A program made the translations under genes and the position numbers. A DNA stretch of 24,750 bases from a virus (lineage: Duplodnaviria; Heunggongvirae; Uroviricota; Caudoviricetes). Position 1 is the stretch's first letter. The number at the start of each line of letters is the position of its first letter. Where the stretch lies: the IMG/VR virus record IMGVR_UViG_3300033069_002010; one strand, written 5' to 3'. Positions 2,995 to 22,468 of this stretch are shown here, piece after piece. The notes under the pieces were generated by a model that saw nothing but the letters and a program-made list of their open reading frames with translations, ran no database searches and had not been told where the DNA came from.

Positions 2995-3027
2995 AAAAGA
3001 GAGGAACAAATCCTCTCTCTTTTTTTT
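2993..3027. terminator. Bidirectional intrinsic terminator
   Basis: Stem AGAGAGGA (2998-3005), loop ACAAA, stem TCCTCTCT (3011-3018); T8 tract at 3020-3027 and A-tract at 2993-2997; lies between convergent genes. Confidence 0.8.
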
Positions 3028-3430
3028 ATTTCATTTTTCCAAGTGTCTTAGCCAACTGAAGCTGTCTGTATTTCGACAAATCCCTTTTGCCCAATCCCTG
3101 GACTCCTGGGGTTTCTGGATCCTTGTCCTTTTTCCTAAGAGATGAGAGTTCACCTTCTATGTCGGAGGAGCTGATTTTCTCGCCTTTTTTCTTGTGCATT
3201 TTCCTTCTGAGGGAACCTGGTCTTTTGATGGCGTCGGAAATCCACTTTTTTTCGTGAACCTCTTCCTCATGGGAGGTTTCGTCCTCCATCATGCACATGC
3301 TTGTGAGTTCTTCGGAGGACATGCTTTCGAGTTCCTCGCGGCCCCATCCGCAGTCGCAGAGTTTGCCGATCATTTCCTCGCGTCCCATATCGACGGAACC
3401 GTAGGATTCGAATGTTTTCAGGTGTTTCAT
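3026..3430 (-). CDS. Putative internal head protein: CTS-like N-terminus, acidic segment, basic KKWI..AIK.PG.LR domain
   Basis: 134 aa; starts MKHLKTFESY; acidic first half; basic second half KKWISDAIKRPGSLRRKMHKKKGEKI...LAKTLGKMK. Last gene of a tightly spaced three-gene minus-strand unit (1-nt and 3-nt gaps). Confidence 0.6.
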   Translation of the reverse strand: MKHLKTFESYGSVDMGREEMIGKLCDCGWGREELESMSSEELTSMCMMEDETSHEEEVHEKKWISDAIKRPGSLRRKMHKKKGEKISSSDIEGELSSLRKKDKDPETPGVQGLGKRDLSKYRQLQLAKTLGKMK

Positions 3431-3433
3431 AGT

Positions 3434-4534
3434 CTATTTCTTATTTTTTCTCTTGTAGGCAAACTCCTTATACAAATCCTTTGCCAATCCAGTTCGGTTT
3501 TTAGCCATATTGTGATAGTCATCCTTGGGAAGATCCCTGGTGCTGGGATTTCTCCACTGCGCGTCCGAAGTCCATTTGCTGAACGGGACTATTGATGATT
3601 CGAGTCCAGGAGCCTGGTGCGACGATTCGTGCATCTCCCCTCCCCGGAACTTGGTTCTTTTTCCTCCCTTGAGTTTGGGATCGGTTGTCTTGAACACCGA
3701 CAGTTTCATCTGGTGGTCGTCCTCATATTCGAGGGCAGATTTTTCCTTGAAGAACTTCTGTATGTGTTCGACATTCTTGGGATCGTCGTCGGAGAATCCG
3801 ACCGAAACGCTCTTGACTCCGAGCTTCTTCCCGAAACGGTTGCATTTCTCGATGAACCTGTCAAGCGCCTGTTGTTTTGCCATTTCCGGATTGGCCGCGG
3901 TCGACTGTCCGAATTCCCTTGCGAAAGAGTCGGAGCTGACTCCGTAATAGTCACAGTTGTCAAGATAGTCCTTAATAAGTTCGGTTTCCGAAAGCTTTCC
4001 CTTGGGAATCCTTTCAAGTTCCTCAGACTCATACGGGGAGAACAGGTAAGCGTGTTTCAGGCAGTTGGAATACATCAGGAACTGCTGGTCTTCGGTCAGG
4101 ACCTGGTCCACTATGTACTTGACGGCGGATTTGATGGACTCGGGCTCGTGTCCCCTTGCCGTCACGATTGCGAAAAGAGCCCCTTCGGTCAGGCATTTTA
4201 TGAAAGCGTCCCATGAAGGCCCGAATCTTCCCTGGCTGACAGCATCCATCGTGTCCTCAAGGAATGCCCTATCCCCCCTGGAACCGTAGTCCCGGAATTC
4301 GGAAAAGGCGAAAACCGGATCGTTGTTTCTCAGACGGTAGTTCTCCTTGTCGTTTCTGACAGTGGCGAATTCGGCGGTCGAGACGTCGATCGGGGACCAT
4401 CCGTCACCGACTTTCCGGTCCATGTGGATCACGGTCGGCATGTGGAGTAAATTGTCATCCCAGTCGAATGCGTAATAATGGAGCTTGAAATCCCGTTTTG
4501 CCTCGTTGAAGCTTGAGTATCTTCTTATTTTCAT
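3434..4534 (-). CDS. HAD-superfamily phosphohydrolase with CTS-like N-terminus
   Basis: 366 aa. Motif I YAFDWDDNL (DxD), motif II AIVTARGH, motif IV GFSDDDPKN. Starts MKIRRYSSFNE. Confidence 0.75.
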   Translation of the reverse strand: MKIRRYSSFNEAKRDFKLHYYAFDWDDNLLHMPTVIHMDRKVGDGWSPIDVSTAEFATVRNDKENYRLRNNDPVFAFSEFRDYGSRGDRAFLEDTMDAVSQGRFGPSWDAFIKCLTEGALFAIVTARGHEPESIKSAVKYIVDQVLTEDQQFLMYSNCLKHAYLFSPYESEELERIPKGKLSETELIKDYLDNCDYYGVSSDSFAREFGQSTAANPEMAKQQALDRFIEKCNRFGKKLGVKSVSVGFSDDDPKNVEHIQKFFKEKSALEYEDDHQMKLSVFKTTDPKLKGGKRTKFRGGEMHESSHQAPGLESSIVPFSKWTSDAQWRNPSTRDLPKDDYHNMAKNRTGLAKDLYKEFAYKRKNKK

Positions 4535-4535
4535 T

Positions 4536-4898
4536 TTAGTGTTTGCGGTACTTCATTTTCTTTGTGTTGAAAAATGCAGAGAACGATTCAAGGGCGCCTT
4601 CTTCCTCTCCCATTTCCTCTTCTTCCATTTCCTCTCCGGATTCTTCCTCACCCATTTCCTCTTCGGCTTCCTCTCCCTCATCTCCGAGGTCTGATTCTTC
4701 CTCTCCGAAAGCGGACATTTCCTCATCTCCCATTTCCTCCATATCTTCACGATCTTCGGTTCCAGGTTGGTCCTCGCCGCCTTCGAGCTCGAATTCCTCG
4801 ATTACTTCCCCGTCTTTTAAAGCCTGAACCATAACTTTACCTTCTTCGGATTCGGATATTGTTATTTCGTATCCATGCATTTCAATAGTTGTTTTCAT
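4536..4898 (-). CDS. Highly acidic low-complexity protein (possible prohead core protein or nucleic-acid mimic)
   Basis: 120 aa; short folded-looking N-terminus, EEMGEEE-type repeats, C-terminal LESFSAFFN followed by a basic tail; preceded by TAATATATA. Confidence 0.7.
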   Translation of the reverse strand: MKTTIEMHGYEITISESEEGKVMVQALKDGEVIEEFELEGGEDQPGTEDREDMEEMGDEEMSAFGEEESDLGDEGEEAEEEMGEEESGEEMEEEEMGEEEGALESFSAFFNTKKMKYRKH

Positions 4899-4917
4899 AC
4901 AAATATTTATTTTTTTT

Positions 4918-4926
4918 TATATATTA
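4918..4926 (-). promoter_or_regulatory. Putative phage late-type promoter TAATATATA
   Basis: 19 nt upstream of ATG 4898; the identical 9-mer occurs at 4955, 12623 and 18185. Confidence 0.6.
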
Positions 4927-4954
4927 AAAATCGAATTCCGTTTTTGACATATCC

Positions 4955-4963
4955 TATATATTA
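4955..4963 (-). promoter_or_regulatory. Second TAATATATA copy in the same intergenic gap
   Basis: Exact 9-mer 37 nt from the first copy; the near-palindromic core could alternatively serve clpP on the + strand. Confidence 0.45.
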
Positions 4964-5007
4964 AACTTTTCAGGCGAAAAGGACTAAAATCAAAAAACCA
5001 AAAACAA

Positions 5008-5667
5008 ATGTCAAACGACTTTCTCAAATACGCGACCAAACACCATCGCATTTCATCAACCTATATCGATTCCTACAAAAGGAAAAACTCGACCCATCTG
5101 ATTCTGGACGACTCAGGAGAGGGAATAATGGTCGACATATTCTCAAAACTGATCGACAGCCGGATAATATTCCTTTCCAATGAGATGGAATCCGACATCT
5201 GCAACATAATCAAGGCCCAACTCCTTTATCTGGAACAGATGGATTCCGAAAGGGACATCAAAATCTACATCGACTGTCCAGGAGGATCGGTCTATTCGGG
5301 ATTGGGCCTTCTCGACACCATGGAATACGTCAGTCCCGACATTATGACCATCAACACGGGTTTGGCTGCATCGATGGCTGCCGTTCTTCTGGCATGCGGA
5401 ACCAAGGGAAAGAGAAAATCCCTGAAGAGGGCGAGAACCATGATACACCAGCCCCTTTCGGCCAGTTACGGATACTCACAGGCATCGGATATGGAAATCG
5501 AGGCCAAGGAGGTGAACTCACTGAAAAGGGAACTTTATGAGATACTGTCGGAAAGGACCGGACAGAAATTCGAAAGGATAGAAAAGGATTCGGACAGGGA
5601 CTATTGGATGAACTCAGAGGAGACCCTTAAATACGGACTGATCGACGAGATTGTCAGAAAAAAATAA
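5008..5667 (+). CDS. clpP: ATP-dependent Clp protease proteolytic subunit, phage-encoded, Bacteroidota-type N-terminus
   Basis: 219 aa. RIIFL, IYIDCPGGSV, GLAASMAA (catalytic Ser), MIHQP (His), QASDME (Asp), DRDYWM, YGLIDEI. N-terminal DFLKYATKH resembles the DFRKYATKH extension of Bacteroides ClpP. Confidence 0.95.
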   Translation: MSNDFLKYATKHHRISSTYIDSYKRKNSTHLILDDSGEGIMVDIFSKLIDSRIIFLSNEMESDICNIIKAQLLYLEQMDSERDIKIYIDCPGGSVYSGLGLLDTMEYVSPDIMTINTGLAASMAAVLLACGTKGKRKSLKRARTMIHQPLSASYGYSQASDMEIEAKEVNSLKRELYEILSERTGQKFERIEKDSDRDYWMNSEETLKYGLIDEIVRKK

Positions 5668-5690
5668 ATCCACCTTACGGTGGATTTTTT
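5666..5690. terminator. Bidirectional intrinsic terminator
   Basis: Stem AAATCCACC (5666-5674), loop TTAC (GTAA, a GNRA loop, on the - strand), stem GGTGGATTT (5679-5687) plus T-tract; lies between the convergent clpP and 5689..6345 stops. Confidence 0.85.
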
Positions 5691-6345: not shown

Positions 6346-6358
6346 ATTTCAATTTTTT

Positions 6359-6430: not shown

Positions 6431-6435
6431 GGTAT

Positions 6436-6582
6436 ATGAAATGTCAATATAGAAACTGTCAAAATGATTTCAGTGGAAGAAATAATAAGAAATATTGCTG
6501 CATAAAATGTAAAAGAAATGAAGCTAAATATAGAAAAAGAAATAAGATAAAATGCCTAAGAAATTGGAGTGGGAGGAAATAA
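6436..6582 (+). CDS. Small basic Cys-rich (putative Zn-finger) protein, 48 aa
   Basis: 3' part of track ORF 6151..6582, starting at ATG 6436: MKCQYRNC...KKYCCIKC followed by a basic helix; directly after an ATATATA motif; overlaps the next ORF by 31 nt. Confidence 0.55.
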   Translation: MKCQYRNCQNDFSGRNNKKYCCIKCKRNEAKYRKRNKIKCLRNWSGRK

Positions 6583-7448: not shown

Positions 7449-9072
7449 CCCAGCTAGTGAAAAATTATTGGTATCAGAGGCATCTAGAATAGAATACCAT
7501 CAGATGAAAATATGGCTGACCAGAAAAATAAAAGGATGGAGGTTTTTACCAGCGGTGAAAATGGGAATATGGAATGGAGATGTATCTCATTTCGACAACG
7601 GGAAGGTGAATTTGGGCCTTTGGAAGGAATGCTGGAAGGCATGCAAGGAGATAGGTGTTCCCTTCAACATGGAAAACAAGGAAGACTTTCCGCTCAACAG
7701 GGAGGTGACCTTGGAATCGGTGACCGAATTCTGCAGGGACTTCTTCAGGCAGTATAAGATAAGGGACAAAAAAACGGGACAGTGGATTCCCTTCATGCCC
7801 TATGATTATCAGATCGAGACCGCCTTCAAAATCCTCAAAAACCGGTATTGCATGGCCGAGGTGGCCACATCGGGAGGAAAATCCCTGGTCATTTCGATAG
7901 TCATGTTCTACACCCTTAAAAACATCAATCCCGACGCGAAGTTCCTGATAATAGTTCCTTCGATAACACTGGTGACCCAGTTCTACGAAAACATCCTCGA
8001 ATACAACTACGGAACCAACTATCTCGAAAAATACGGGGACAAGATCGAATTCAGGAACCATCTTATAGACTCGATACTCGAAGAGGATCCCGACTACAAT
8101 CCCTGCCACATCAAGATGGAGGAAATTATGTCAGACAAGCCAAGAAAATGGACAGGACCATCCCAACCCAACGTGTTTGTCGGATGCTACCAGTCCCTTG
8201 AGAAATATCCGAAGGAATTCTTCCAGCAGTTCCATACTGTGGCATGTGACGAGGCTCACGGGGCCAAGGCCACCACACTTACCTCCATCCTGAAAAGGAC
8301 ATTCGGACACGCCTATAACCGGTTTGGGGTTTCAGGAACCTTTCCCACCGACGAGACACTTGAAATACTTACAATTCAGTCGGTTTTGGGACCAAAGGTG
8401 ACACAGATCGAGGCATCGACCCTTGTCAAGTCCGGAACGATAACACCGATGGAGGTTAAGGCGGTGATACTGAACCACGCGTCGGCGGGGATGAACGAAC
8501 AGCTTCAGCACATCAAAAAAAGCGGAGGAGGAGCCAACGCATACAGACTTGAGAACGAATACATACAACAGTCCAAAAAAAGACTTGAATTCCTAAAGAA
8601 GCTCGTGTCCAAATGTCAGGAAAACACACTCCTTCTGTTCAACACACTGGAATTCGGAACCAAAATTTTCGAGGAGCTGAAATCCGAAATAACCGACAAG
8701 GACTTTTACTACATCGCTGGTGAGATAAACAACAAGAACCGTGAGATAATCAAAAAGGAGATGGAAAAGACCGACGGAAGGGTCAAGGTCCTTGTGGCCT
8801 CATATGGAACTCTGAGCACGGGAGTGTCAATCAATGCCATATTCAACGTGATATTCGCAGATTCGGCCGGAAAATCCGAACAGAAAGTCATACAGTCGAT
8901 CGGAAGGGCTCTCAGAAAACACGACAAGAAAAAAGTGGCCACGATTTTCGACCTGGTCGACGTGTTTGACCCCAAGGAAATGAACAACATACTATACCGA
9001 CACTTTCAGGAAAGGGAAAAATTCTACAAGAACAGGAACTATCCCTATAAGGTTATAAAAATCAATCTATAG
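7432..9072 (+). CDS. uvsW: SF2 DNA/RNA helicase, T4 UvsW-like
   Basis: 546 aa. PYDYQ Q-motif, Walker A EVATSGGKS, IIVPSITLVTQ, DEAH, motif III GVSGT, motif V STGVSI, motif VI QSIGRALR; T4-like end YKVIKINL. Confidence 0.9.
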   Translation: MKFKYDPASEKLLVSEASRIEYHQMKIWLTRKIKGWRFLPAVKMGIWNGDVSHFDNGKVNLGLWKECWKACKEIGVPFNMENKEDFPLNREVTLESVTEFCRDFFRQYKIRDKKTGQWIPFMPYDYQIETAFKILKNRYCMAEVATSGGKSLVISIVMFYTLKNINPDAKFLIIVPSITLVTQFYENILEYNYGTNYLEKYGDKIEFRNHLIDSILEEDPDYNPCHIKMEEIMSDKPRKWTGPSQPNVFVGCYQSLEKYPKEFFQQFHTVACDEAHGAKATTLTSILKRTFGHAYNRFGVSGTFPTDETLEILTIQSVLGPKVTQIEASTLVKSGTITPMEVKAVILNHASAGMNEQLQHIKKSGGGANAYRLENEYIQQSKKRLEFLKKLVSKCQENTLLLFNTLEFGTKIFEELKSEITDKDFYYIAGEINNKNREIIKKEMEKTDGRVKVLVASYGTLSTGVSINAIFNVIFADSAGKSEQKVIQSIGRALRKHDKKKVATIFDLVDVFDPKEMNNILYRHFQEREKFYKNRNYPYKVIKINL

Positions 9073-10653
9073 GTCCCTCTCCAACATCAAGGTGTAGTGG
9101 AACTTGTTTCCATATCTTTTCTGGTGTTCCCTGCAGATTCTAAAAAAACTGTTCAATTCCGCTTCCGAGGAAAACACTTGACATCCTTCACTCCAATTAT
9201 TCACGGAACTTCCACCCGGGTATCCACGATGTATCAGCATTCCGACCCAAGCGGTGCCGCTTCCGGTGTATTTGATTATGTCACCCGGAGAATTGTCCCT
9301 GTAGAATTTCTGGGGACCGGTTGTCTTCATCGCAGGCTCCCCACAGTGTTCCCCGATCGTATAGATATTGAGGTATTGGGCTTCCATCAGGATGCCCATC
9401 CCGTTGTTCGGAGGGGTTCCTCTTCCCAACATGATGCTGGACTGCTTGACATTCGGGCTTTTTCCCGTGGGATCGCGTCTGAGTTTGCCATCCACAACCT
9501 GAGCCGAATAGAATCCAGGCATTGTGGTAATCTTATATTTCGAGGATCTCCAAGAACCCGCGTTGTCCCTGTATATCACATACAAATCGTCCTTGAAGGC
9601 GTTGGAGTACTTCATCCCCTCGTATTGTCTTCTTATTCCGACAATATTCACCTCAAACGGTTTTGTATTGATTACATATCCTTTCCTTTTCATGAGATCC
9701 AATATCTTGTTGACGTCGATATTTGTAGATGGTGTTACGTCAGGAGGGGGAACATTTCCCTCAAGCGGATTTAAAACGTTTCCGGACTCGTCGACATACG
9801 GGGTAAGCTGCCCGTCTGGCGTATCCGAAGAATTCCCGTCCTTGGACTGGAAATCGACACTTTCCGAAGTGATGGTCTGATTAGGACCGACCGTGGATTT
9901 CCAACTGTCTCCCAATTGTCCGTCGGCGGGTCTTTCCTGTTTCTGCACGAATTCGTTGTCGACCAGATTGACATGGTGAGATAGGAATTTCACATCCCTC
10001 AAAGCCTTATACCTGTTCAAAAGTTCAAGAAGAGCTGGACTCACCTGAACGGGAGCCCCCGCATTTCCTATGAAGGGACTTAGGGAATAACGATCCTGTC
10101 CGCTTGCCGGACCAAGAAGGTTATCGACAAACTCGTCAAACCAATCCATGAAGTGATCCCCGAGTATAGCCTTTTGGTTTGCTGTAGGAGTCCCTATGTT
10201 GACGTGGCTGAAGTTGTCCTTCAGGTTCAGATTTATGTCGTTTTTGGTTATGTTTATGTTATTGAGCTTGTAATCGATTTTAAGACCCTCACCGTCATTG
10301 GAATAGATTTGAGTCTTGTGGTCGAACATAAGGGCTCTCATTGAGGTGTAATCCTTTCCTGACAGTTCCGAAAGCTTTCTCTCCAAATTGATGTTGTAAT
10401 GCTCGGCGAATATGTATTCGGGCTTGTAAGGGTTTCCCTCGTCAAAAACCACCGAAACCACCTTGCCGACTTCGGGAAGGATAAACTGGTTCCCGTTCAG
10501 ATCCTTCCATGGGGTCGCCCAAGGCAGATCCTCTTTTGGGATGCTGTCAAATATGTTCAGGACCCTTACTCGACATCTTCCAAGCTTTTTCGGATCCTCG
10601 TTGTCCTCAACCGTCCCTATGAATATTTTCGATTTCAGTTCTTCTCTTGTCAT
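9067..10653 (-). CDS. gp5: Baseplate central spike protein (gp5-like OB fold) fused to a YkuD/L,D-transpeptidase-like domain
   Basis: 528 aa. N-terminal IGTVEDNEDPKKLGRCRVRV...LPWA...PEVGKVVSVVFDEGNPYKPEY is the gp5/VgrG OB signature. C-terminal NIVGIR...TTMPG...IH475...S-E-G-C491 has the 16-residue His-Cys spacing of YkuD enzymes. Confidence 0.8.
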   Translation of the reverse strand: MTREELKSKIFIGTVEDNEDPKKLGRCRVRVLNIFDSIPKEDLPWATPWKDLNGNQFILPEVGKVVSVVFDEGNPYKPEYIFAEHYNINLERKLSELSGKDYTSMRALMFDHKTQIYSNDGEGLKIDYKLNNINITKNDINLNLKDNFSHVNIGTPTANQKAILGDHFMDWFDEFVDNLLGPASGQDRYSLSPFIGNAGAPVQVSPALLELLNRYKALRDVKFLSHHVNLVDNEFVQKQERPADGQLGDSWKSTVGPNQTITSESVDFQSKDGNSSDTPDGQLTPYVDESGNVLNPLEGNVPPPDVTPSTNIDVNKILDLMKRKGYVINTKPFEVNIVGIRRQYEGMKYSNAFKDDLYVIYRDNAGSWRSSKYKITTMPGFYSAQVVDGKLRRDPTGKSPNVKQSSIMLGRGTPPNNGMGILMEAQYLNIYTIGEHCGEPAMKTTGPQKFYRDNSPGDIIKYTGSGTAWVGMLIHRGYPGGSSVNNWSEGCQVFSSEAELNSFFRICREHQKRYGNKFHYTLMLERDL

Positions 10654-10655
10654 AA

Positions 10656-12602: not shown

Positions 12603-12622
12603 CGATTAAGATCAGTTTATTG

Positions 12623-12631
12623 TATATATTA
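12623..12631 (-). promoter_or_regulatory. Putative late-type promoter TAATATATA
   Basis: 20 nt upstream of ATG 12602 in a 41-nt intergenic gap. Confidence 0.6.
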
Positions 12632-12643
12632 ATAAATTGGTTC

Positions 12644-15643
12644 TTATATCAGATAAGATTTGCTTTCCGACTTTCTTTTCCTAAGACCGTCGACATACTG
12701 TATCTGGTTGAAATTTCTTGCCCACAGGGGCTTAAGTTCGAACAGTCTCACCGATCTCGGATCAAGATTCCCTCCCCAATAAAGACCAACCGAAATGCCG
12801 ATTCTGCCTACCTGGTCATAAAGCGGGGAGGCGGTCTGGAGAATCCCATCCACATAAACCCCAACATCGAAGGACATTCCGAAATTGTAGACGGAATATC
12901 CGGCCTGTTCCGTAGTTTTTCCCTCGGAATAGAGAAGGATCTGTTCATCATAGGTAACAAGTCCCTTGGTGACTTTTACGGTTATACCAGAAGCGGCGGA
13001 TTTACTCACCAACTGTCTCGCCAACGACTGAACCTCAGGTATAAGATTGGATATGAACTGTTCGCTTTGATTGTCGGCAGGCGGGGTGTTGTCAACGGCG
13101 AAATTCACCGGGACGGTGGTAACCCCTGAATCGGCAGGAGGACTCGGATCAGGATTTTCAGTGATAGTATCGTTGGATGTCTGTTGTCCCGGTTCGGATT
13201 TTGGAGTCTGTTCGGCCTCCTGCTGAAATTCCTCGGGAGACAGTTCGAGTTCCCTTTTGATCAGTCGAATCACTTGGGTGAATTTCCTGCCGTCAAAAAC
13301 AAACTTGATGTCGATCACAAGCCATTCTCCCGTGAGTCGGTTGTTGATGTGCGGAGCAGATGGTGTGGAAGCCTGATTTGATATGAACACGAATATCTTC
13401 TGAAACTTGTAGATATTGTAATTGGGATTACCCATCTCAACCTCTATACATACCTTCTGAAGTTCCGAAATGTTTCGGTTGTTCTGAATAGACGAATATT
13501 GGTAGTTCGAATGCATATTGTCGGTATCCATCTTACCGGCATAGATTATCTGGGTATTCTCGTTGAAAAAAGATTCGTCCTGTGGAGCTCCCTTCAGAAT
13601 TATGCTCTTGTCACCCTTGCTGGTTATCGAGTCGATGTCGAATATCAGAAAATCCTTTGACAGCTCGTCGTAGAATTTGACCTTGCTCAAGTATCCCTCC
13701 TGGATCGATATTTTCGTCGAATTGTTGATTACCCTGTAGTTGGAGAAGTAGATGTTGGAGTTATTCATCGAAAAATCGTTTGTCAAATAGAGTTTCGAAA
13801 CCTTTTCCTTATCGTCTATCTTTGATATCTCCTCAACTCCCGTATTAGCCACTCCCAATTCCTCCTTGATGTTCCTACCCAATTCCTTTTCGATATCCAC
13901 GAAATTGATATTGTAATAATAGTCGATGTAATAAAGCAAAAAAGTCTGGTCGGACAAATATGACGAGTCTATCACAGTGTTCATGAAATCCAAATTCCTC
14001 TGTCCCGTATTTATCCACGTCATCGAATCATTGGTGTCATCAACGTTGGTGTTTAGACCCATTCCGACTTCCTTACAGAAATCCTCAAACACCTTAAAGC
14101 TGGTCATGTTCGGATATGACTTGAATCTCTTGGTGTAAAGCTGGTTGACGTCTATGATCCCATCCAAAGAAAGATTAGGCCCATCGAATGAAAACTTTAC
14201 TATCTTGAATTGGAGAAGGATCGGCTTAAGCTGATCGGATCTCGGATTCAGAAATACCTCAATCTTAGAATCGTCAAGCGGAAAAGACTTGTCCCTCATA
14301 AGGTTGAGGGTATCCCTGAAAACAAGTTTGAGGGTTGGGAGATTGTTGCTTATGTAAAGTTGGAAAAACTGTATGTCATTAACCTCAATCTGATATGCGT
14401 TGTACCATACGAACGGAAAATTTCCCAGACTCTGGGCGATTTCGGCCTGGACATCCTTCTGTGGAGGGATGTTCATTCTAATCGGATCGGCCTTTATCTT
14501 GGCCGGAATAACATTGGTAAGGGTGGTTATCTTTCCCTGCGTGTTCTTGTTGTTGCCTCCCTTATCCTGTGTCGGATCCTCTCCGGTGCGCTGGGAACGG
14601 CTCTCATCCTGTGTCGAATCGTCCGGATACGAGTTGGATGTCGGATTTGCCGATACTACCTCACCCACATCGTTTGACTCTATCAGCGATAGTTGCTGCA
14701 TCACCCTGGCGTAGAACTGATCGGCGTATTTCTGACCACCGGAAATCCGACGACCCATGTTTATTATGTCCTTTCTCAGATTGGCGTCTGATTGGTTGGA
14801 ATCTATCAAACTGTATCTTCCGTTTTTGGACGAATGTATCCAAACAGCATAGTTGGCGATTATAAAATCGGTATTCCTGAAAAGATCATCCCATTGCTGA
14901 TTTGTGGAAATCGTACATATCGCATCCACGTCGGATCCGTAGGCGGCCCAAGCCGATTTCACGGATGCGATGGTCGGATTGTTTCCCGAATAGCCCAATA
15001 TGTATCGGACAATATCCTTATATCCTTCCCTTGATGTGGTCTGTATGAATCCCCTTCCTCGAAACTTGACGAAATCCGCCTCATATATGAACGTGTTGGT
15101 CCTACCGAGCCTGTCGATTTCCGAATCGACGTTTCCCGAAAAACCGGTTGGAAATGTCGTACCCTTCCACACATTATTGGTCGTGTCCTTCAAAACGCTT
15201 CCAAAAGGTTTTGTGATATGTGCATTCTTGAACTTGGAATCACGGAAAAGGTCATAGGCCGATTTGTTGGCGACACCGTCGGACGGATCGTTGTAGGATC
15301 TTTTCACTCCTGGTATCTTGTCGAATGCGTATGATATACCCGGATGTCCCTTCGATCCCATCCCCTCCGAAACGGGAGAAAAAGATCCGCCTGTCTCGTT
15401 TATGATGATAGAATTCAGGCAAAGGAATTCAATCAGGTTGAAAGTGTCCTTGTTAAGAAGCAATTTGGCCCTGCTCCAAACACTATACCAGTTTGAAGGA
15501 CTCTCAATTCTTTTTCCTCCCCAATTTTCCCTGCCGGCGATTTTCCGGTTGAACCAATCGGGGAAATCCTTGGCTCCGAATTTCTTGAAAAATTCGTTTA
15601 TCTCATTCGAGTTGCTGAATGTGTTGTTTCTGTAGTTTGGCAT
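12644..15643 (-). CDS. Baseplate hub-like (gp27-type) protein with N-terminal GH19 lysozyme-like domain and C-terminal degenerate M15 peptidase domain
   Basis: 999 aa. GH19: NE83TGG...SE93, KFRGRGFIQTT, GRRISGG. The central ~400 aa ends RLTGEWLVIDIKF...IRLIKREL, a hub-like C-terminus (inferred from pattern and position after gp53). C-terminal LIPEV..LAR.L......GITVKVTKG...EQ..LY..G...S.YNFG.SFD...VG..G...GL.WGG resembles CwlK/Ply500-type M15. Confidence 0.7.
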   Translation of the reverse strand: MPNYRNNTFSNSNEINEFFKKFGAKDFPDWFNRKIAGRENWGGKRIESPSNWYSVWSRAKLLLNKDTFNLIEFLCLNSIIINETGGSFSPVSEGMGSKGHPGISYAFDKIPGVKRSYNDPSDGVANKSAYDLFRDSKFKNAHITKPFGSVLKDTTNNVWKGTTFPTGFSGNVDSEIDRLGRTNTFIYEADFVKFRGRGFIQTTSREGYKDIVRYILGYSGNNPTIASVKSAWAAYGSDVDAICTISTNQQWDDLFRNTDFIIANYAVWIHSSKNGRYSLIDSNQSDANLRKDIINMGRRISGGQKYADQFYARVMQQLSLIESNDVGEVVSANPTSNSYPDDSTQDESRSQRTGEDPTQDKGGNNKNTQGKITTLTNVIPAKIKADPIRMNIPPQKDVQAEIAQSLGNFPFVWYNAYQIEVNDIQFFQLYISNNLPTLKLVFRDTLNLMRDKSFPLDDSKIEVFLNPRSDQLKPILLQFKIVKFSFDGPNLSLDGIIDVNQLYTKRFKSYPNMTSFKVFEDFCKEVGMGLNTNVDDTNDSMTWINTGQRNLDFMNTVIDSSYLSDQTFLLYYIDYYYNINFVDIEKELGRNIKEELGVANTGVEEISKIDDKEKVSKLYLTNDFSMNNSNIYFSNYRVINNSTKISIQEGYLSKVKFYDELSKDFLIFDIDSITSKGDKSIILKGAPQDESFFNENTQIIYAGKMDTDNMHSNYQYSSIQNNRNISELQKVCIEVEMGNPNYNIYKFQKIFVFISNQASTPSAPHINNRLTGEWLVIDIKFVFDGRKFTQVIRLIKRELELSPEEFQQEAEQTPKSEPGQQTSNDTITENPDPSPPADSGVTTVPVNFAVDNTPPADNQSEQFISNLIPEVQSLARQLVSKSAASGITVKVTKGLVTYDEQILLYSEGKTTEQAGYSVYNFGMSFDVGVYVDGILQTASPLYDQVGRIGISVGLYWGGNLDPRSVRLFELKPLWARNFNQIQYVDGLRKRKSESKSYLI

Positions 15644-16104
15644 TATCCTCCGATTACGATTTGGTTATCTACTATCTGAACGGCCGGCTGAGGGGATTCC
15701 TGATAGGTTGGCGGTATCGAGTTGTTTTCCTCGACATATTTTTTCCTACCATCATCCTTCCTGGTTGTCTTGTTGACATTAAGAAGAGCCTTTCTAGCCT
15801 CCTTGTTGTCGATGACCTTAACCCTGTAGTTTTCTATCGCCTCATAATCCACATATGATATACTGTCATTTTCCTTAATGTTGAGTGGATTGTCGATACT
15901 GTTCAGATCAAGAAGGAAATCACAGTTGTCCGTGTTTCCATATATGTCCTTACAGATGAGATCTATCCTCATCTCATGCTCCGGCGGGACCACGTAGGTT
16001 GACATCGGAAATCCGGCACTCATCTTGAACGTCGGATCGAAAAAATTGTAGAGTCCATTTTGATTATCATCAGTTTTCAGCTTGTCAAGGTCGTACACTT
16101 TCAT
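15643..16104 (-). CDS. gp53: Baseplate wedge subunit, gp53-like (LysM-like)
   Basis: 153 aa; YVV..EHEMRIDLICKDIYGNTD..D.LL.LN.IDNPLNIKEND pattern; stop overlaps the next start (TAATG). Confidence 0.75.
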   Translation of the reverse strand: MKVYDLDKLKTDDNQNGLYNFFDPTFKMSAGFPMSTYVVPPEHEMRIDLICKDIYGNTDNCDFLLDLNSIDNPLNIKENDSISYVDYEAIENYRVKVIDNKEARKALLNVNKTTRKDDGRKKYVEENNSIPPTYQESPQPAVQIVDNQIVIGG

Positions 16105-16113
16105 TTTTCTATC

Positions 16114-18162
16114 TTATATTTTTGTGAGTCCCTTCGACTGTAGGGCCAATTCAAATTCGGAATTCGCTTGCTGCTTGACATAGTCGACAAGAACCTGGTA
16201 GTTGCTCTCACCGGTTTGTTTGTCTCCCCCGTCCGAGGTATCCCATCTTCCGACATATGTGTTCGGCTGTACCGCGCTTGAAACTGACCAGTTTATGGAG
16301 ACATTTTGCTGGCTGTACTTTCCGCTGTTCAGAATCTGTCCTCCCAACCAACTGCCGCTCACATAACCAGGAACGGGCGATTCGGCAGCCGGCTGAATTC
16401 CGACGGTCGGTGCCGGAGGTGGTGTCGGAGGCGGTATACTAACCGTTGTGTTTGGAATGGTAGATACGGAAGATTTAGAAGGATGAACCTCACTTGTGTT
16501 TCCAATCGACGGATTTGTGACAGGATCACCGATTACCGGAGTAGAAGTGGGATCGTTATAGGAATACCAATCGTTTCCGGGCCCGTTTATTGAGTAGAAA
16601 GGATCATTGACTAGCGGATTGTAGGTGTATACGGCTTCCGCGTTTTGCAGTGTTGTCCTGTTTACGACCACACTCTGGCTCTGTCCGTTCTGGTTGAGGA
16701 TCGTGGTTGAGACGGTTCCGGATTTGATTGAAAAGGTTGCCGAAATTGATTTCTCAACAAATGACTCCTTAATCCTGGCATATGATCTTCCCCTACCGGT
16801 ATTGAACCTTTGGAATATTTCCTGTGCTCCCAACGGCCTTGCGTTCGTAAGACTGAACGAAAATTTGATTGACGACGGTAGATCGTTAAATGTAAGGGTT
16901 TTACCCAACTCAACCTTGACCGTTTCACAAAGCATGTCACCCGAACAGAAAATCGGTTTTTTCGGATTGCCGATAGTCACATGCCACGGGGCGGAAGGAC
17001 TTCCGCTGAGAGCGTTCAGAACCCCGAGAAGCTTCACCTTGTACTTGCTGACGACATGACCGACGGTCGAGGCGAAAGCCTTTTGGATTTGATCGATAAT
17101 CTGGTTGGTATTGGGAAACTGATCGTTTCTTGGTGGGTTTATCAGAGCATTTATAATCTTTGCTCCTATATCTGATATGGCCTCCACCAAGGCGGAAACG
17201 AATTGGATTATGGATGCGGCTATTGCCCTCAAATCCCCACTGATGAGGTTTTTGATGAACTCACTCCCGCTGTTCTGAAACTTGGTGTTGAACTGGAACA
17301 CCGACTCGGAGGTTCCGAAGGTGAGAGCGTTCTGTATGATATCAAGGTAAACCAAGGAAGGATCCAACCCGTTTATGAATTTCTGCTCATACTCGACGTT
17401 CATGGTGACCGTGATGGTGCATTTCAACCCGGATCCGGCCGTATTCTTGGATACGAGGGATCTCTGTTTGGCCTGTCTGATCAGATTTGGGTTTCCCAAA
17501 GGTGAGTTTCCGATTCCGAAGTCATCCTGAAGACCGAGTTTTTTCAGTATCTCATACTGAATTCCCTCCATGAAACCTGGCATCGGAAGCATATCCATTC
17601 CACCCGCCGCGAAATTGCCAAGCTGGCTTCCCCCAATCAGATCCTTGACGTCACCACCAAGTTCATTGAGTATGCTGGTGAAGCTCGCTTCTGCGTCTGT
17701 CCAGCTCTCACCCCAATCTGCTGATAACCATTCCTGATCCTCGGGAACCCAGGATACCAAAGTCGCCATCGGAACATCCTTCACCGTCGAGAGATCGCTG
17801 TGGACCCCACTCTGAAATCTTCTGGCGACTATAAGTCTGTTGTTGGGGAAGACCCCAACGTTTTTGAGGTAGGCAAAATCTGCGAATGTCAGTTTCATCG
17901 ACGGTATACCACTTGTATACTCGACTATGGAAGCAATACTCACGTCATTGGTGTCATCATTGTGGATAGACTGAGCGTTTGTCCCGATTTTGGGTATCGC
18001 GTCCTTAATCTCAGGATTAGAATTGTTGACCCCAGGGAATGGAATGAACTGATTAGAATTTCCGTCGTTTCCGACTCCGAAAATCGATTTTATACGAAGG
18101 GAATTGATTACCTGATACTGGGAAAGTCTCTGGCTAGGTCCTAAGTTTAACGGGGATGGCAT
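16114..18162 (-). CDS. Putative baseplate/tail-tube initiator (gp48/gp54-like) with Pro-rich linker and extra C-terminal domain
   Basis: 682 aa; first gene of the baseplate run. The region WHVTIGNPKKPIF..GDM.CE.V.VE.G..L.FNDLP..I...F.L..ARP looks like a tube-fold C-terminus; PPPTPPPAP linker. The family call is inference from pattern and synteny. Confidence 0.5.
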   Translation of the reverse strand: MPSPLNLGPSQRLSQYQVINSLRIKSIFGVGNDGNSNQFIPFPGVNNSNPEIKDAIPKIGTNAQSIHNDDTNDVSIASIVEYTSGIPSMKLTFADFAYLKNVGVFPNNRLIVARRFQSGVHSDLSTVKDVPMATLVSWVPEDQEWLSADWGESWTDAEASFTSILNELGGDVKDLIGGSQLGNFAAGGMDMLPMPGFMEGIQYEILKKLGLQDDFGIGNSPLGNPNLIRQAKQRSLVSKNTAGSGLKCTITVTMNVEYEQKFINGLDPSLVYLDIIQNALTFGTSESVFQFNTKFQNSGSEFIKNLISGDLRAIAASIIQFVSALVEAISDIGAKIINALINPPRNDQFPNTNQIIDQIQKAFASTVGHVVSKYKVKLLGVLNALSGSPSAPWHVTIGNPKKPIFCSGDMLCETVKVELGKTLTFNDLPSSIKFSFSLTNARPLGAQEIFQRFNTGRGRSYARIKESFVEKSISATFSIKSGTVSTTILNQNGQSQSVVVNRTTLQNAEAVYTYNPLVNDPFYSINGPGNDWYSYNDPTSTPVIGDPVTNPSIGNTSEVHPSKSSVSTIPNTTVSIPPPTPPPAPTVGIQPAAESPVPGYVSGSWLGGQILNSGKYSQQNVSINWSVSSAVQPNTYVGRWDTSDGGDKQTGESNYQVLVDYVKQQANSEFELALQSKGLTKI

Positions 18163-18677: not shown

Positions 18678-20492
18678 TCACTCGAATTTTCCTATAATCT
18701 GGTTCTGTTTTATGGTCAACGAAAATCCACTCCCGTTCTCGGATTTTTTCGGCTCGAATTTCGAGTCAAACCCTGCCTTTATGAACTGGTCTTTTGAAAC
18801 AGCCTTTATCTTACCATCAGACGTCTTCAGAAAATAGTCAAAACTCTCGTTGGCGACGTCACCCGCCAATTCGACACCGGATTTGTATTCGACCTCCTTC
18901 CCCGATTTAATATCATCTATCTTGGACTTGAGAATGGTGATAAAGTCATCGGCGAACATTTTCATGACATCGGTGTAGTTCTCGGTTCCGAAATTCTTGG
19001 ACAGAAGATCCCTCCTTGAGGAGAAATAGTTCAACCCCTGTATGTTGGTTATCGAAGGGTGTCCCCCGGAATTGACGGTTATGATGTCATACATCGAAAT
19101 CGTAATCAGTCCCATCATCTGCTTTTCCCTATCGGACCATTTCTCATAAGGCTTGTCCATACACTCCTTCAGGATTCCGATCACGACGGCGGTCTTTGCC
19201 GAAGTCTCGTCATCTAGATTAAGGAACTCCGTGGTGAAATCACCCGACTTTCTGTTCGGCATCCACTTTATGGTCTTGGAATAGAATGCCTTCAAATCGG
19301 CGTAGTTGAATCCGATCGGCTGATAATCTTCCCCGTAATGGGTTCTCTTTTTCGAAATCTCGTCCTCGCTTATCCTTTTGATGTCGGATATCGGAACGTT
19401 GAATTCCTTCAATATGTCCACATACTTGCCCAACATTTCCTTGGTTATGGCCCCAAGATCGATCTTCGACAGGACCTTTTCCTTGAAGGGATTGCAGGAA
19501 ACCTGAATCAGGCCCATAGGGAAAATGGTGCAGACAAAATCGGCTGCGGGATTGTTCTTGAACACAACATACCGGTCGTAAGAACCCGGCTCGAAAACAG
19601 ATCCTATGCCGTATTGCTTTATTATCTTATATGTCTCGTCGAATTCGACATCCTTGCTTCCCACCCTCGACTTAACGTATTTTTCAAGATTGGATTTAAG
19701 AACATCGAGAGTCGCCAATTTTTTAGGGACATTATGCTTTCTTAGAGACTTGTCATATTCGAGGGATATAGCCGTATCCATGTAATGTTTTATGTTCATG
19801 AACATCGATATCAGAGAAGGTGAAGAATCCAAAGTCAGACACTCCAAGAAATTCTTGTTGATGTGCTTTCTCTTCCCGTCAAGACTGGTTCCGCTGATTC
19901 TCTTGTTTTTGAACACGAGAAGAAGCCTGTTGACCACAAATCCCATCATGAAACGGTTTTTCTCACCCGATAGTTTCGGATCCACCGAAAAAACCACATT
20001 CTGAATGTCATCGGGGGTTATCCCGTATTTTAGGAAGTCGGCCGAATCGACGGTCTTGATAAGATCTATGTCCGATTTCATGAAAACGTCTGAAGGGGAT
20101 ATCTCACCCGATATTATCTCGACGTTTGACCTTGAAGGCTTTGCGTAAGCCGCTCCCGAAGGTTCTCCCGTCTGACTGGTGTGGTGATCGGTGGCTATGG
20201 TGAACATGGTCTTGAAATGGGCGAAATCGACAAGAACGGCCATAGAATCGGGTCTTTTCTGTCTTATGGCGTATTCCATCCCACCGTATTGGGTGATGTG
20301 ACAATCAACCATTTTCATTCCGTATCTTTCCAGATAGGATTTCATTGCCAACGCCGAGGTAACACCATCCAGATCTTGGTGAAACCAGATCTCGAAATTG
20401 TTTCCGTGCTCGGCCTTGTGTGAGGCTATCAGTTTGGAGATGTTCCTGAGACCCACTTCCTCATTCAAAAAAGAATTGTATTTCTTTATCAT
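18678..20492 (-). CDS. DHH/DHHA1-family phosphoesterase with CTS-like N-terminus
   Basis: 604 aa from ATG 20492 (the track uses TTG 20498). FHQDLDGVTSA, VLVDFAH, TDHH, SRSN, VDSAD and a C-terminal SGGH. Starts MIKKYNSFLNEE. Confidence 0.85.
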   Translation of the reverse strand: MIKKYNSFLNEEVGLRNISKLIASHKAEHGNNFEIWFHQDLDGVTSALAMKSYLERYGMKMVDCHITQYGGMEYAIRQKRPDSMAVLVDFAHFKTMFTIATDHHTSQTGEPSGAAYAKPSRSNVEIISGEISPSDVFMKSDIDLIKTVDSADFLKYGITPDDIQNVVFSVDPKLSGEKNRFMMGFVVNRLLLVFKNKRISGTSLDGKRKHINKNFLECLTLDSSPSLISMFMNIKHYMDTAISLEYDKSLRKHNVPKKLATLDVLKSNLEKYVKSRVGSKDVEFDETYKIIKQYGIGSVFEPGSYDRYVVFKNNPAADFVCTIFPMGLIQVSCNPFKEKVLSKIDLGAITKEMLGKYVDILKEFNVPISDIKRISEDEISKKRTHYGEDYQPIGFNYADLKAFYSKTIKWMPNRKSGDFTTEFLNLDDETSAKTAVVIGILKECMDKPYEKWSDREKQMMGLITISMYDIITVNSGGHPSITNIQGLNYFSSRRDLLSKNFGTENYTDVMKMFADDFITILKSKIDDIKSGKEVEYKSGVELAGDVANESFDYFLKTSDGKIKAVSKDQFIKAGFDSKFEPKKSENGSGFSLTIKQNQIIGKFE

Positions 20493-20507
20493 GTTCAAAA
20501 AATTATT

Positions 20508-21050
20508 TTATTCCTCGTCAAGGTCAATTTCATTATCGTCATCCTCGTCATCGAAGATATCATCATCAATATGGTCTTCCTCGTCATGTTCAAGTTCACC
20601 TTCATCGTCAAATTCATCCTCGAATTCCTCATCATCATAATCATCATCCTCATCATCGGATTCGAGTTCGCCGCTCTTCATGGCGTCAATCGTGTCCTGG
20701 GTGACATTGTAATCAACCCAACTCTGTATCTGCTCACCCAGATCAAATCCCAAATCCGAAAGATCGTCGAATATGACTTTCATATCGGTGAAATTCGATG
20801 TGGAAAGATATGACTGAAGATTCGGTATAGATTCCCTCATATGCTCAAGGAACATCTGGTAGTCAACCGATATCTTTTCCTCATCACCATCGGGGGTCTC
20901 CACCCAAACGTTGAAATGGTCCACGTCTCCGTGACTGTGCTTCCTGAAATACTCGGTCTCATCCTCGGGACTTCCGAAATCCCATCTGACAACCTTAAAT
21001 TGGGGACTTTCAAATCCCAGATAATCGTTGAATTCTAAAATATGTCTCAT
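20508..21050 (-). CDS. Hypothetical protein with CTS-like start and long Asp/Glu tail ending in Glu-Glu
   Basis: 180 aa; MRHILEFNDY start; last ~50 aa mostly D/E; ends EIDLDEE; 7-nt gap to the amidoligase gene. Confidence 0.8.
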   Translation of the reverse strand: MRHILEFNDYLGFESPQFKVVRWDFGSPEDETEYFRKHSHGDVDHFNVWVETPDGDEEKISVDYQMFLEHMRESIPNLQSYLSTSNFTDMKVIFDDLSDLGFDLGEQIQSWVDYNVTQDTIDAMKSGELESDDEDDDYDDEEFEDEFDDEGELEHDEEDHIDDDIFDDEDDDNEIDLDEE

Positions 21051-21057
21051 ATTTGTC

Positions 21058-22443
21058 TTATTTTTTAAATCCTTTTATGACGCCCAAATCCTTTTTCCCA
21101 TCCCTTTCCTCTTCAAAACTTGTATCGAAGAAGCTGTCTGTTTCCGAAACCACGTTGGTCTCCGAACTTATGTTTGCGTAAGGCCCGAGCTTTCCACCCC
21201 TGAACACCCCACCAATCATATCCCCGTTTAGATAACCGTTCATGAAGAAGCAGTTTGTCATTTGAGTGGCCTCAACATTGCAGCTGAGAATCTTCGAATC
21301 ATTGATGTCACATCCGTGTATCTTGGATTTTATTATCTGGGAATTGGAGACCTGACAATTGACCAGTCCGCAATTCTCGAATATGCCGTCAGACATCACA
21401 CAATTGATGAAGTCAAAATCCTTGATGTTGTGTGTCGATTTTACGTTTGCGTCAATAACCTCTATTTTCTGGGTAGCTGTCACATAGTTTATTATGCAAT
21501 CCTTCAGGGAATCGGTTGAATCTATCAGGACATGCAGCTTGGGGAAAATCTTATCATAGTATGCGTTGACAACGTCATAATTGTAATATTGGTCTATCTG
21601 AAGGGATATTGTCGGGAAATCAACAATAAAGTTGTCGTATTTTGAGAAATTCTTGAAGTTGCTGATGTTGAGATCAAGGTATTTCTCCAACTCGTCAATA
21701 TCCTGGTCGTTGAAACCGGTGTCTATGGAATTGTGGACATCTATGACAAACCTGTCCATGAAATACAATATCTGTCCTATGTTTTTCTCATAGTCCTTAC
21801 CACCGATGTATCGGAACTCCAGTCTCTGCGAATCTTTCGGATTGTTGACATGTAGGAAATTGACCCCGTAGTACTTGTCATCAGGCATCCTTATGTTGTT
21901 TTTGACCACGTCGATCGGAATGTTGTTGAAATCGTATTCCTTGTATGGGATTACCTTTTTGACGGTCTTGGCGTAAACGTTGTTCTTTCTCGAAGGATAA
22001 ACCCTGTAAATCTCTTCCTCATCAAGATTGAGAATAAGCTTGAGCATATTCAGGTCGTTAAGGTCCTTGTCGGCATCACCCAAAAAGGATATGTTGAAAT
22101 GGATTGACGCTTTTTCGGTGGTATATCCGTATTGCTGTATGAATTTCAGGATTTTTATCAGATAAAACTTGGCCTCATAATATGACATCGGCCCTGTAAC
22201 CAATTCCACCATGTTCGAACCTCCAGAAAGATCGGGTTCTATCTTGAAGTTCTGGGAATCTGGCTTGAAATCGGAGTGATATTTCTTGAAACCCCAAACC
22301 TTTACGGGAGCAAGATAAAGATTGAGCATTTCCAATGTCTTGTAATAGGACATTTCCCTCATGAAAAACTCAAATTCAAAGCCCACTTGTGACTTTTTCA
22401 AAATATCATTGCTGTTGATGAACGTTTCCGAATATTTCTTCAT
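21058..22443 (-). CDS. Putative amidoligase (COOH-NH2 ligase, Amidoligase_2-like) with C-terminal pentapeptide-repeat beta-helix
   Basis: 461 aa. GFEFE, KIEPDLS, ELVTGPM, SIHFNIS, KYYGVNF, LEFRYIGG; then about 13 five-residue repeats (FENCG LVNCQ VSNSQ IIKSK IHGCD INDSK ILSCN...). Confidence 0.75.
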   Translation of the reverse strand: MKKYSETFINSNDILKKSQVGFEFEFFMREMSYYKTLEMLNLYLAPVKVWGFKKYHSDFKPDSQNFKIEPDLSGGSNMVELVTGPMSYYEAKFYLIKILKFIQQYGYTTEKASIHFNISFLGDADKDLNDLNMLKLILNLDEEEIYRVYPSRKNNVYAKTVKKVIPYKEYDFNNIPIDVVKNNIRMPDDKYYGVNFLHVNNPKDSQRLEFRYIGGKDYEKNIGQILYFMDRFVIDVHNSIDTGFNDQDIDELEKYLDLNISNFKNFSKYDNFIVDFPTISLQIDQYYNYDVVNAYYDKIFPKLHVLIDSTDSLKDCIINYVTATQKIEVIDANVKSTHNIKDFDFINCVMSDGIFENCGLVNCQVSNSQIIKSKIHGCDINDSKILSCNVEATQMTNCFFMNGYLNGDMIGGVFRGGKLGPYANISSETNVVSETDSFFDTSFEEERDGKKDLGVIKGFKK

Positions 22444-22457: not shown

Positions 22458-22468
22458 AAAAATGAAGA

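Follow-up and report, generated by a model that had tools for sequence, protein, structure and literature searches.

The stretch of DNA analysed here, called the window throughout, is 24.75 kb long and belongs to virus record IMGVR_UViG_3300033069_002010; it is the reverse complement of positions 66,497-91,246 of one 92,898-bp virus contig (G000; GC content 40%, completeness 13% according to CheckV). Our subject is a short N-terminal peptide, referred to below as the tag, which is common to otherwise unrelated proteins of this phage and recalls the capsid targeting sequence (CTS) of phage T4. The earlier note on this DNA had quoted five such protein starts, all of which are present exactly as claimed, and had placed them in two tightly coupled three-gene units, each with a TATATA-type motif upstream, as we also find. 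Unit 1 (4898-3026) encodes a 120-residue acidic protein, a 366-residue protein and a 134-residue protein, in this order; unit 2 (22443-18678) encodes proteins of 461, 180 and 604 residues. The spacers between the coupled genes are 1, 3, 7 and 15 nucleotides long (Table 1).

Comparison of the whole window with GenBank phages by megablast gave no match. By protein, the only GenBank relatives are metagenomic huge phages of 462 to 735 kb (LR745206 and LR756500-LR756504), and because of this the window is taken, on its protein content, to be a fragment of a Mahaphage-type huge-phage genome. As a reference we used the whole of an IMG/VR relative (G001; 464,605 bp, 98% complete), which has 67 of 116 predicted proteins in common with G000 and is syntenic around the window. 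Shine-Dalgarno sequences are not present, and the upstream motifs include TAnnTTTG, the -7 element of Bacteroidota; the two classes of upstream motif described below, together with the missing Shine-Dalgarno sequences, point to a Bacteroidota host. Counts given below as a number out of 120 refer to the 120 homologues listed for each family, from totals of 2,148 (HAD), 2,701 (DHH) and 3,581 (prohead protease).

Table 1. Features of the window. Positions are those of the window; the strand is that on which the feature lies.
Feature	Position	Strand	Remarks
134-residue protein	3026..3430	-	Canonical tag MKHLKTFESY (3401-3430); small acidic Cys-containing middle; basic C-terminal domain
366-residue HAD-superfamily phosphatase	3434..4534	-	Tag MKIRRYSSFNEA at codons 4499-4534, MKIRRYSSFNE
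120-residue highly acidic protein, untagged	4536..4898	-	First gene of unit 1; start MKTTIEMHGYEITI kept in relatives
Two TTTAATATATA promoter-like motifs	4918..4963	-	Head unit 1; lie in the 110-bp divergent region in common with ClpP
ClpP protease subunit	5008..5667	+	Divergent from unit 1; Pfam CLP_protease, E 5e-68
Sixth T[TA]ATATATA-type site, TATATATA	22-24 nucleotides upstream of the 218-residue protein gene (5689-6345)	-	
Baseplate/tail module	9067..18162	-	Directly downstream of unit 2 and co-oriented; five untagged proteins
604-residue DHH/DHHA1-type phosphoesterase	18678..20492	-	T4-like tag MIKKYNSFLNEE, MIKKYNSFLNE, codons 20457-20492
180-residue protein	20508..21050	-	Tag variant MRHILEFNDY (codons 21021-21050); C-terminal half extremely acidic
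461-residue amidoligase-like protein	21058..22443	-	Start MKKYSETFINSN, MKKYSETFINS; C-terminal pentapeptide-repeat region
Phage-type promoter-like motif TTTATATATA	22450..22459	-	Heads unit 2 (amidoligase, acidic protein, DHH)
T[TA]ATATATA-type sites	22459-22450, 18193-18185, 12631-12623, 4963-4955, 4926-4918	-	Directly upstream of the two tag units and two baseplate operons

The 366-residue protein gave no Pfam match at E 0.01. It contains HAD motifs I-IV on a Rossmann-like core (invariant D24, D26, D27, N28, T125 and D249-D251), and the stretches FDWDDN, TARG and SDDD are invariant in its family. The AlphaFold2 model (predicted local distance difference test score, pLDDT, 83.6) has a confident core of residues 17-303; residues 1-12 (pLDDT <50) and 305-317 are disordered, and the latter are followed by a C-terminal helix. 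An exhaustive VIA-align search with this model returned the T4 Pnkp phosphatase domain (Z 9.3 and 9.2) and Pnkp1 (Z 9.1) in the top rows, and nearly all of the top 50 rows were HAD-fold or HAD-like phosphatases. A Foldseek search of the model against the PDB found nothing at E 0.001, and a hidden Markov model of the family run against PDB sequences gave one chance-level row only. As modelled, the protein is a HAD phosphatase resembling the 3'-phosphatase domain of T4 Pnkp. It matches T4 Pnkp and the bacterial Pnkp1 RNA-repair enzymes over ~131 residues, including the DxDx(T/N)-type acyl-phosphatase motifs, but has no kinase domain, is only 12-14% identical, and contains large insertions and an extra basic module at the C-terminus. 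The nucleotide-processing or counter-defence role proposed earlier is not supported: the fold points to nucleic-acid 3'-end repair rather than to nucleotide pools, and counter-defence is a guess.

The tag of the HAD protein lies outside this modelled fold. The N-terminal consensus of its homologues is MIKKFNDFIKES; in the listed ones it reads M-I-K-K-F-x-x-[FY]-I-x-E-S, after which come a variable linker of 2 to 10 residues and the first strand, LELHYYAFDWDD. The aromatic pair followed by Glu is found in 95/120. The 604-residue protein of unit 2 shows a very similar picture. It matches Pfam DHH with E 3e-5 (24.7 bits, below the cut-off of 28.1), the DHH/DHHA1 motifs HQDLDG, DHH and GGH can be read in its sequence, and many of its homologues carry PF01368 or are named DHH phosphoesterase. 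The start used is the ATG at 20492 and not the upstream TTG at 20498, as conserved in more than 100 homologues, and the N-terminus of the listed ones reads M-I-K-K-Y-x-x-[FY]-(0-4 residues)-[IL]-N-E-E-x-G, with the aromatic pair and Glu in 110/120. Two unrelated enzyme families, HAD and DHH, have therefore kept the same 12 N-terminal residues across wide divergence (46-83% identity in the listed homologues).

Less can be said about the other four proteins of the two units. The basic domain of the 134-residue protein is weakly similar to the fusellovirus DNA-binding VP2 family (PF25632, E 3e-4, below the cut-off but covering the full profile), and the protein also matches phrog_15706 (E 1e-5); when it is aligned with its counterparts in three relatives, the tag proves conserved, and one of them lacks the middle part. 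Neither the 180-residue protein, whose tag reads MRHILEFNEY in relative L007, nor the untagged 120-residue protein has a family match in Pfam or PHROGs. Each unit contains one extremely acidic protein with a poly-Glu/Asp tail (4536-4898 and 20508-21050, both on the minus strand); these recall gp67 and gp68, acidic proteins of the T4 prohead core, or DNA mimics, and there is no family match. A prohead-core-like acidic role for the 120-residue protein is speculation. The 461-residue protein matches Pentapeptide_4 below the cut-off (E 8e-6). Its nearest neighbours by language model in the ESM Atlas are clusters that go by the name of amidoligase, with a score of 0.97 and PF12224 annotated on 14-90% of their members. 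No match to PF12224 was obtained at E 0.01; VGFEFEF, to be compared with the GxExE at which the amidoligase fold begins, is found at residues 20-26. The earlier note had listed its start as a weaker example of the tag, and weak it is: relatives have MKKYSEKFIHE or MKTYSEKFLND, and we consider the amidoligase a doubtful tag carrier.

Tags occur well beyond the window. About 15 of 116 open reading frames (ORFs) in G000 and about 43 of 521 in G001 carry one, scattered over the whole genome, and the carriers have unrelated folds: HAD, DHH, nucleotidyltransferase, small basic proteins and small proteins without a known family. Pfam and PHROGs searches with ten other tagged G000 proteins gave no family at E 0.001 and one weak Pfam match below the cut-off. 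The tag is on none of the recognisable tail, baseplate, sheath, portal and capsid proteins. The canonical pattern M-[KR]-[YH]-L-K-x-F-E-S occurs at the N-terminus 5 times in G000 (0.03 expected from its internal frequency), 23 times in G001 (0.14 expected) and once in LR756500 (0.23 expected); for a pattern derived from T4, [YFW]xx[FY][ILVF]xE, the corresponding figures are 2 (0.29), 14 (1.2) and 21 (1.2). The resulting N-terminal enrichment is 7- to 160-fold in the three genomes; the patterns were partly written after the data had been seen, and G001 and LR756500 serve as replication sets.

Could such an enrichment arise without any common function, from AT-rich codon preference, from initiation constraints in a Shine-Dalgarno-poor Bacteroidota host, or from paralogy? 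The residues K, Y, L, I, F, N and E do have mostly AT-rich codons, Lys is common at position 2 in bacteria, and three canonical tags of G000 are nearly identical in DNA. Yet the G000 tags use GC-containing codons (CAC CTG ... TTC GAA TCC), and the tags of G001 use five different codons for Leu and both families of Ser codons. Moreover, it is the order of the residues that is fixed and not composition alone, the carriers have unrelated folds, and genes behind host-type promoters in the same genomes almost never have a tag. We regard this explanation as largely refuted already and give it hardly any weight. Since synonymous Leu and Ser codons vary under the tag, selection on it is, by this codon evidence, at the peptide level. 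We also rejected an AT-richness artefact, which the GC-containing codons of G000 and the codon variation rule out, and a DNA-level element or recombination linker, which the synonymous variation in G001 rules out.

One further tag carrier, seen in both genomes, is a CCA-adding enzyme (Pfam PolyA_pol, E 5e-31; G000 23800-25008, plus strand; G001 58901-60070, minus strand). Its tag is MRILNFKNFLVES in G001 and, counted from an internal Met at ORF residue 27, MKVLVNYEKFLEN in G000. Taken with the Pnkp-like HAD phosphatase, this enzyme suggests a theme of RNA-end repair.

The CTS of T4 internal proteins was reportedly described by Mullaney and Black in 1996. Only ten residues are needed for packaging in T4, of which residues 4 and 7 serve targeting and residues 8 and 10 processing, and the prohead protease gp21 cuts after L/I-X-E (PMC9026906). 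We find two exact copies of the sequence MKTYQEFIAE in the T4 genome. The DHH tag, K-Y-N-S-F-L-N-E, and the HAD family consensus, K-F-N-D-F-I-K-E, contain all four determinants of T4 Y-Q-E-F-I-A-E at the same spacing, with a shift of one residue, and the LR756500 tag M-K-Y-I-K-E-Y-E-E-F-L-N-E corresponds to the T4 sequence with three residues inserted. MKHLKTFESY is the sole canonical tag among the five quoted starts; the HAD and DHH starts make up another register that is T4-like, and the start of the amidoligase agrees poorly with both. The earlier note had proposed a scan with a position-specific scoring matrix; a rigid matrix built from the canonical tags of G001 recognised just 4 N-termini in G000 and missed the HAD and DHH tags, and because of this there must be at least two registers. 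As far as these sequences go, the likeness to the T4 CTS is a real and specific one, and the claim of CTS-like starts holds for the DHH tag and the HAD consensus. A 120-residue protein of G001 (189430-189792, plus strand) begins with MRFQKFYEFIAE, and the last six residues of its tag are identical to the T4 YxEFIAE core.

G001 contains head genes in the T4 order: Portal_T4 (E 7e-59), a 690-residue protease and a Gp23-family capsid protein (E 6e-27). The protease matches phrog_207 (E 1e-29) and, weakly, Peptidase_S77; against T4 gp21 it gave E 3e-4 in BLASTP and E 5e-5 over 109 columns in hhalign. The hhalign alignment covers GEFDHP/GELNHP and VSSRAAG/VSSRGLG, which we take to be the catalytic His and Ser motifs of a gp21-type protease. 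Its N-terminus has an invariant L-I-x-E, like LIE-9 of T4, and the capsid protein opens with KWSPVLE where the gp23 propeptide has KWKPLLE. Several of the protease homologues carry PF03420 in precomputed annotation, and the gene is present in all four other GenBank relatives. A six-frame search of G001 for Peptidase_S77 and HK97-type Phage_capsid had returned nothing; the protease and the gp23-type capsid protein were found on direct protein scan. The protease (phmmer) and a profile of its N-terminal domain had no match among PDB sequences.

The protease also provides the closest parallel to the tag. In G001 (L025:865-2937, minus strand) its residues 286-425 consist of ten tandem 14-residue units, Y-S-E-Y-[IL]-A-E-[NH]-L-D-x-x-I-x, followed by a very acidic stretch; such a fusion is also found in L044-L047. 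The listed homologues have 7-14 such units (median 11) of the form Y-[STAG]-E-Y-[ILV]-A-E at a spacing of exactly 14, most commonly YSEYIAE (466 times) and YSEYLAE (436 times). YSEYIAE is identical to the T4 tag core YQEFIAE in 5/7 residues and has a Y/F exchange in addition. The T4-derived pattern occurs 62 times in the G001 proteome (145,721 residues): 14 times at an N-terminus, 10 times in the protease and 38 times scattered, at the background rate. As a positive control, the same pattern matches FGSFLTE at residues 59-65 of T4 gp23, presumably the gp21 maturation cleavage site, Glu65/Ala66. When N-termini were scored by BLOSUM against the scaffold consensus alone, which is independent of the tags, 13 in G001 reached a score of at least 18, compared with 2.4 expected, and the DHH protein of the window was among the top two of G000. 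The simplest reading of these sequences is that the tag imitates the scaffold repeat unit, and that this unit would serve both in building up the core and as a place for the protease to cut. A scaffold repeat fused to a gp21-like protease is, as far as can be told, new. Two small ORFs also have scaffold-like repeats (LR745206 460483-460638 and LR756501 620141-620263).

Two promoter-like classes are found in G000 and G001: a phage-specific class, TTAATATATA, 14-35 nucleotides upstream of the start codons of ~55% of genes, and the host-type TAnnTTTG (~20%). The 8-mer AATATATA is ~19- to 25-fold enriched in the 60 nucleotides upstream of ORFs in both genomes. Genes were classed by the nearest promoter motif that their operon has. 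In G001, 39/43 tagged genes lie in TAATATATA operons, and a tag is found on only 1/104 of the genes in host-type operons (Fisher p = 5e-5); in G000, 9 tagged and 50 untagged genes lie in phage-type operons and 0/24 genes in host-type operons are tagged. The pattern is thus nearly absent behind the host-type, presumed early, promoters, and the refuting condition named in the earlier note, that it be equally common in early proteins, does not count against its reading. The TAATATATA class takes in every recognisable gene for portal, protease, capsid, sheath, giant structural and baseplate proteins; the terminase ORF was assigned to neither class. The minus strand of the window has six T[TA]ATATATA-type sites, and there are no copies on it other than those of the tag units, the baseplate operons (18193-18185 and 12631-12623) and the gene of the 218-residue protein.

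The TAATATATA motif also stands upstream of 18162 and 12602, the starts of the baseplate operons. Instead of a capsid signal, the tag might be a helix for docking, or a propeptide, that acts in a different late step of assembly or localisation (at the tail, the baseplate or a replication/assembly compartment), or it might be a protease signal that serves zymogen activation only; in either case no tagged protein would travel in the head or be injected. In favour of this, unit 2 is the immediate upstream neighbour of the baseplate module, which includes a gp5-type OB-fold hub (Pfam Phage_base_V, E 4e-8), in the same orientation and with the same type of promoter; tagged genes of G001 are interspersed among sheath and other virion genes; and an amphipathic, helix-like peptide outside the fold is a generic interaction element. 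We nevertheless think this unlikely. None of the recognisable tail, baseplate, sheath, portal and capsid proteins is itself tagged, and within the proteome it is the head scaffold, and no tail protein, that resembles the motif most. Finally, gp21-family proteases act inside proheads in T4 and in phiKZ-like phages (PMC9026906), so that cleavage by such a protease would imply entry into the head.

The ClpP gene divergent from unit 1 raises another possibility, to be taken seriously as the main competitor of packaging, namely that the tag is an N-terminal degron or adaptor signal read by a phage ClpXP, giving accessory enzymes a timed lifetime, and that nothing is packaged. ClpX is said, from work by Flynn et al. 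in 2003, to read short N-terminal motifs of the Met-basic-hydrophobic kind. The catalytic motifs of ClpP (GLAASM, MIHQP, DRD) can be read in the sequence, its gene is only 110 bp from unit 1, and three relatives (L009, L010 and L011) have the same arrangement of ClpP and unit 1. G001 has a ClpX-like AAA_2 protein (E 3e-60; 121230-121709), so the lineage possibly has its own ClpXP protease. This neighbourhood is a single conserved one, however, while tagged genes are scattered genome-wide, and a degron leaves unexplained both the four T4 CTS determinants and the roughly ten copies of the motif in the prohead protease/scaffold protein. The phage would also be destroying ~10% of its own late proteins, highly conserved enzymes among them, for no obvious purpose. 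We judge a degron to be quite improbable.

We think it probable, by a modest measure, that the tags on the DHH, HAD, 134-residue basic and 180-residue acidic proteins are this lineage's version of the T4 CTS. The observation made in the earlier note is confirmed and its interpretation is supported in part. The following sequence of events may be envisaged. Tagged genes would be transcribed from phage-specific TAATATATA promoters along with the virion genes. The amphipathic tag, consisting of basic residues and then aromatic-x-x-aromatic-[IL]-x-Glu, would mimic the 14-residue scaffold repeat fused to the gp21-type protease, and this mimicry would take the tagged protein into the scaffolding core of the prohead. 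There the prohead protease would cut after Glu ([LI]-x-E, as in T4), freeing the mature enzyme inside the head, and would probably also remove the C-terminal module of the HAD protein at Glu303. The packed proteins would leave with the DNA at infection. Scaffold binding, cleavage, packaging and ejection of the tagged proteins are all inferred from the analogy with T4. The protease that this calls for, whose presence elsewhere in the genome the earlier note had proposed to confirm, is found in every sequenced relative beside gp20- and gp23-type genes, but not in the 93 kb of G000 itself.

The earlier note had further proposed internal cleavage sites at domain junctions, of which one fares well and two less so. 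Glu303/Ser304 of the HAD protein (MHE/SS, within 3611-3643) is located at the end of the last strand, just before the disordered stretch. Glu303 is present in 112/120 listed homologues, in a linker of variable length, and is followed by [SAT][STA]; beyond it lies a conserved, basic module of 63 residues. In the model, MHE/SS fits a candidate processing site at a domain boundary that would release this module. In T4, Alt too is processed at its N- and C-terminal ends (PMC9026906). The other two sites show modest conservation: VHE/KKWI of the 134-residue protein (3233-3268) is supported by four sequences, and at ANE/SF near the C-terminus of the DHH protein (18834-18860) E549 is the majority residue in ~80-89% of homologues, many of which end near this site. 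An x-x-E by itself is too frequent a pattern to count as evidence.

Several points weigh against packaging of the tagged proteins. All the phages concerned are uncultured and the case is one of sequence and models; the head machinery is taken from relatives, as the G000 record contains no head module. The likeness to T4 is uneven: the HAD tag in this copy (F-N-E) has no Ile/Leu, the amidoligase tag in this copy has no terminal acidic residue, and the canonical MK[YH]LKxFES is one residue shorter in its spacing than T4, although it still ends in [L/x]-F-E. Co-variation of scaffold repeats with tags was not seen in LR756500, where the repeats are degenerate and the tags sharp and T4-like; this comparison is uninformative. 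The tagged genes, called late in the earlier note, have their promoter class in common with virion genes, but lateness is not proven, as the TAATATATA class takes in ~55% of genes, among them a clamp loader, and is not strictly late. Tags are also found on the CCA-adding enzyme and on other enzymes able to work in the cytoplasm; the genes of the HAD and DHH proteins evolve slowly and belong to the core, in contrast to the hypervariable internal proteins of T4; and with its own ClpP beside unit 1 and a ClpX-like ATPase, the lineage has an alternative reader of N-terminal tags. On balance, the feature is real and non-random. As read from sequence, it represents a much expanded variant of the T4 capsid-targeting system, for which the case is good but circumstantial.

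A broader proposal can be made only tentatively, and we would stop a little short of calling it probable. Mahaphage-type phages may load about a tenth of their proteome into the head by means of an N-terminal copy of the scaffold repeat, and among this cargo would be a kit for nucleic-acid end repair and nucleotide signals, made up of the Pnkp-like 3'-phosphatase, the DHH phosphodiesterase and the CCA-adding enzyme; the T4 CTS would be a relic of such scaffold mimicry; and a set of proteins for tRNA/RNA repair and counter-defence would be injected before any gene is expressed. If the tags act in the same way as that of T4, the largest known phages carry dozens of ready-made enzymes in their heads, models of early infection, host takeover and counter-defence change, and the injected proteome of uncultured phages becomes predictable from sequence alone. 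The near-identity of YSEYIAE and YQEFIAE suggests that in T4, too, the tag acts as a mimic of the scaffold and as a protease site at once. The tag could also be a portable packaging signal for engineering.

Some further features of the window may be recorded here. The gp5-type hub (9067-10653, minus strand) has a C-terminal H-R-G...S-E-G-C-Q-V which, by eye, is like the His/Cys motif of YkuD-type L,D-transpeptidase-fold domains; Pfam gave no such match. The 218-residue protein encoded between helicase and ClpP (5689-6345, minus strand), behind TATATATA, has an amphipathic N-terminus and a long basic tail rich in Lys, Pro and Glu. Two AT-rich genes on the plus strand (1-1029 and 6552-7448; GC content 33-35%, compared with 44-48% in their neighbours) encode zinc-ribbon and DUF7487-type repeats and have the look of homing-endonuclease insertions; the second of them overlaps the beginning of a UvsW-like helicase gene (7432-9072).

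Our literature search found no paper linking the CTS to huge phages. The closest known system is the T4 CTS itself, present on IPI, IPII and IPIII and in the Alt propeptides (PMC9026906, PMC3012670). Like the tag, it is a peptide of ~10 residues at the extreme N-terminus of unrelated proteins, with Met-basic, an aromatic residue, a second aromatic at +3, Ile/Leu at +4 and Glu at +6, and it ends in the L/I-x-E of a gp21-type protease. Both lineages have gp20-, gp21- and gp23-type head genes, and a small basic DNA-binding-like protein is among the tagged ones here. The differences are also clear. The tag is on ~8-10% of the proteome, compared with 3-4 proteins in T4; the candidate cargo includes large, slowly evolving enzymes (the 604-residue DHH protein, the 366-residue HAD protein and the CCA-adding enzyme); there are two registers, the commoner of which, MK[YH]LKxFES, is one residue shorter; and the scaffold, known here from sequence alone, is fused to the protease as tandem repeats of a tag-like motif. 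The second comparison is with the phiKZ-like giant phages (phiKZ gp175, 201phi2-1 and SPN3US gp245), which have giant heads holding dozens of internal proteins, processed after Glu by a divergent homologue of gp21, and which deliver enzymes with their DNA (PMC9026906, PMC5694885, PMC10052503). Their sites are S/A-x-E, however, their propeptides are long, they have no common short N-terminal tag and their protease is not fused to a repeat scaffold; the Mahaphage-type protease is recognisably closer to T4 gp21 than the phiKZ-like protease is.

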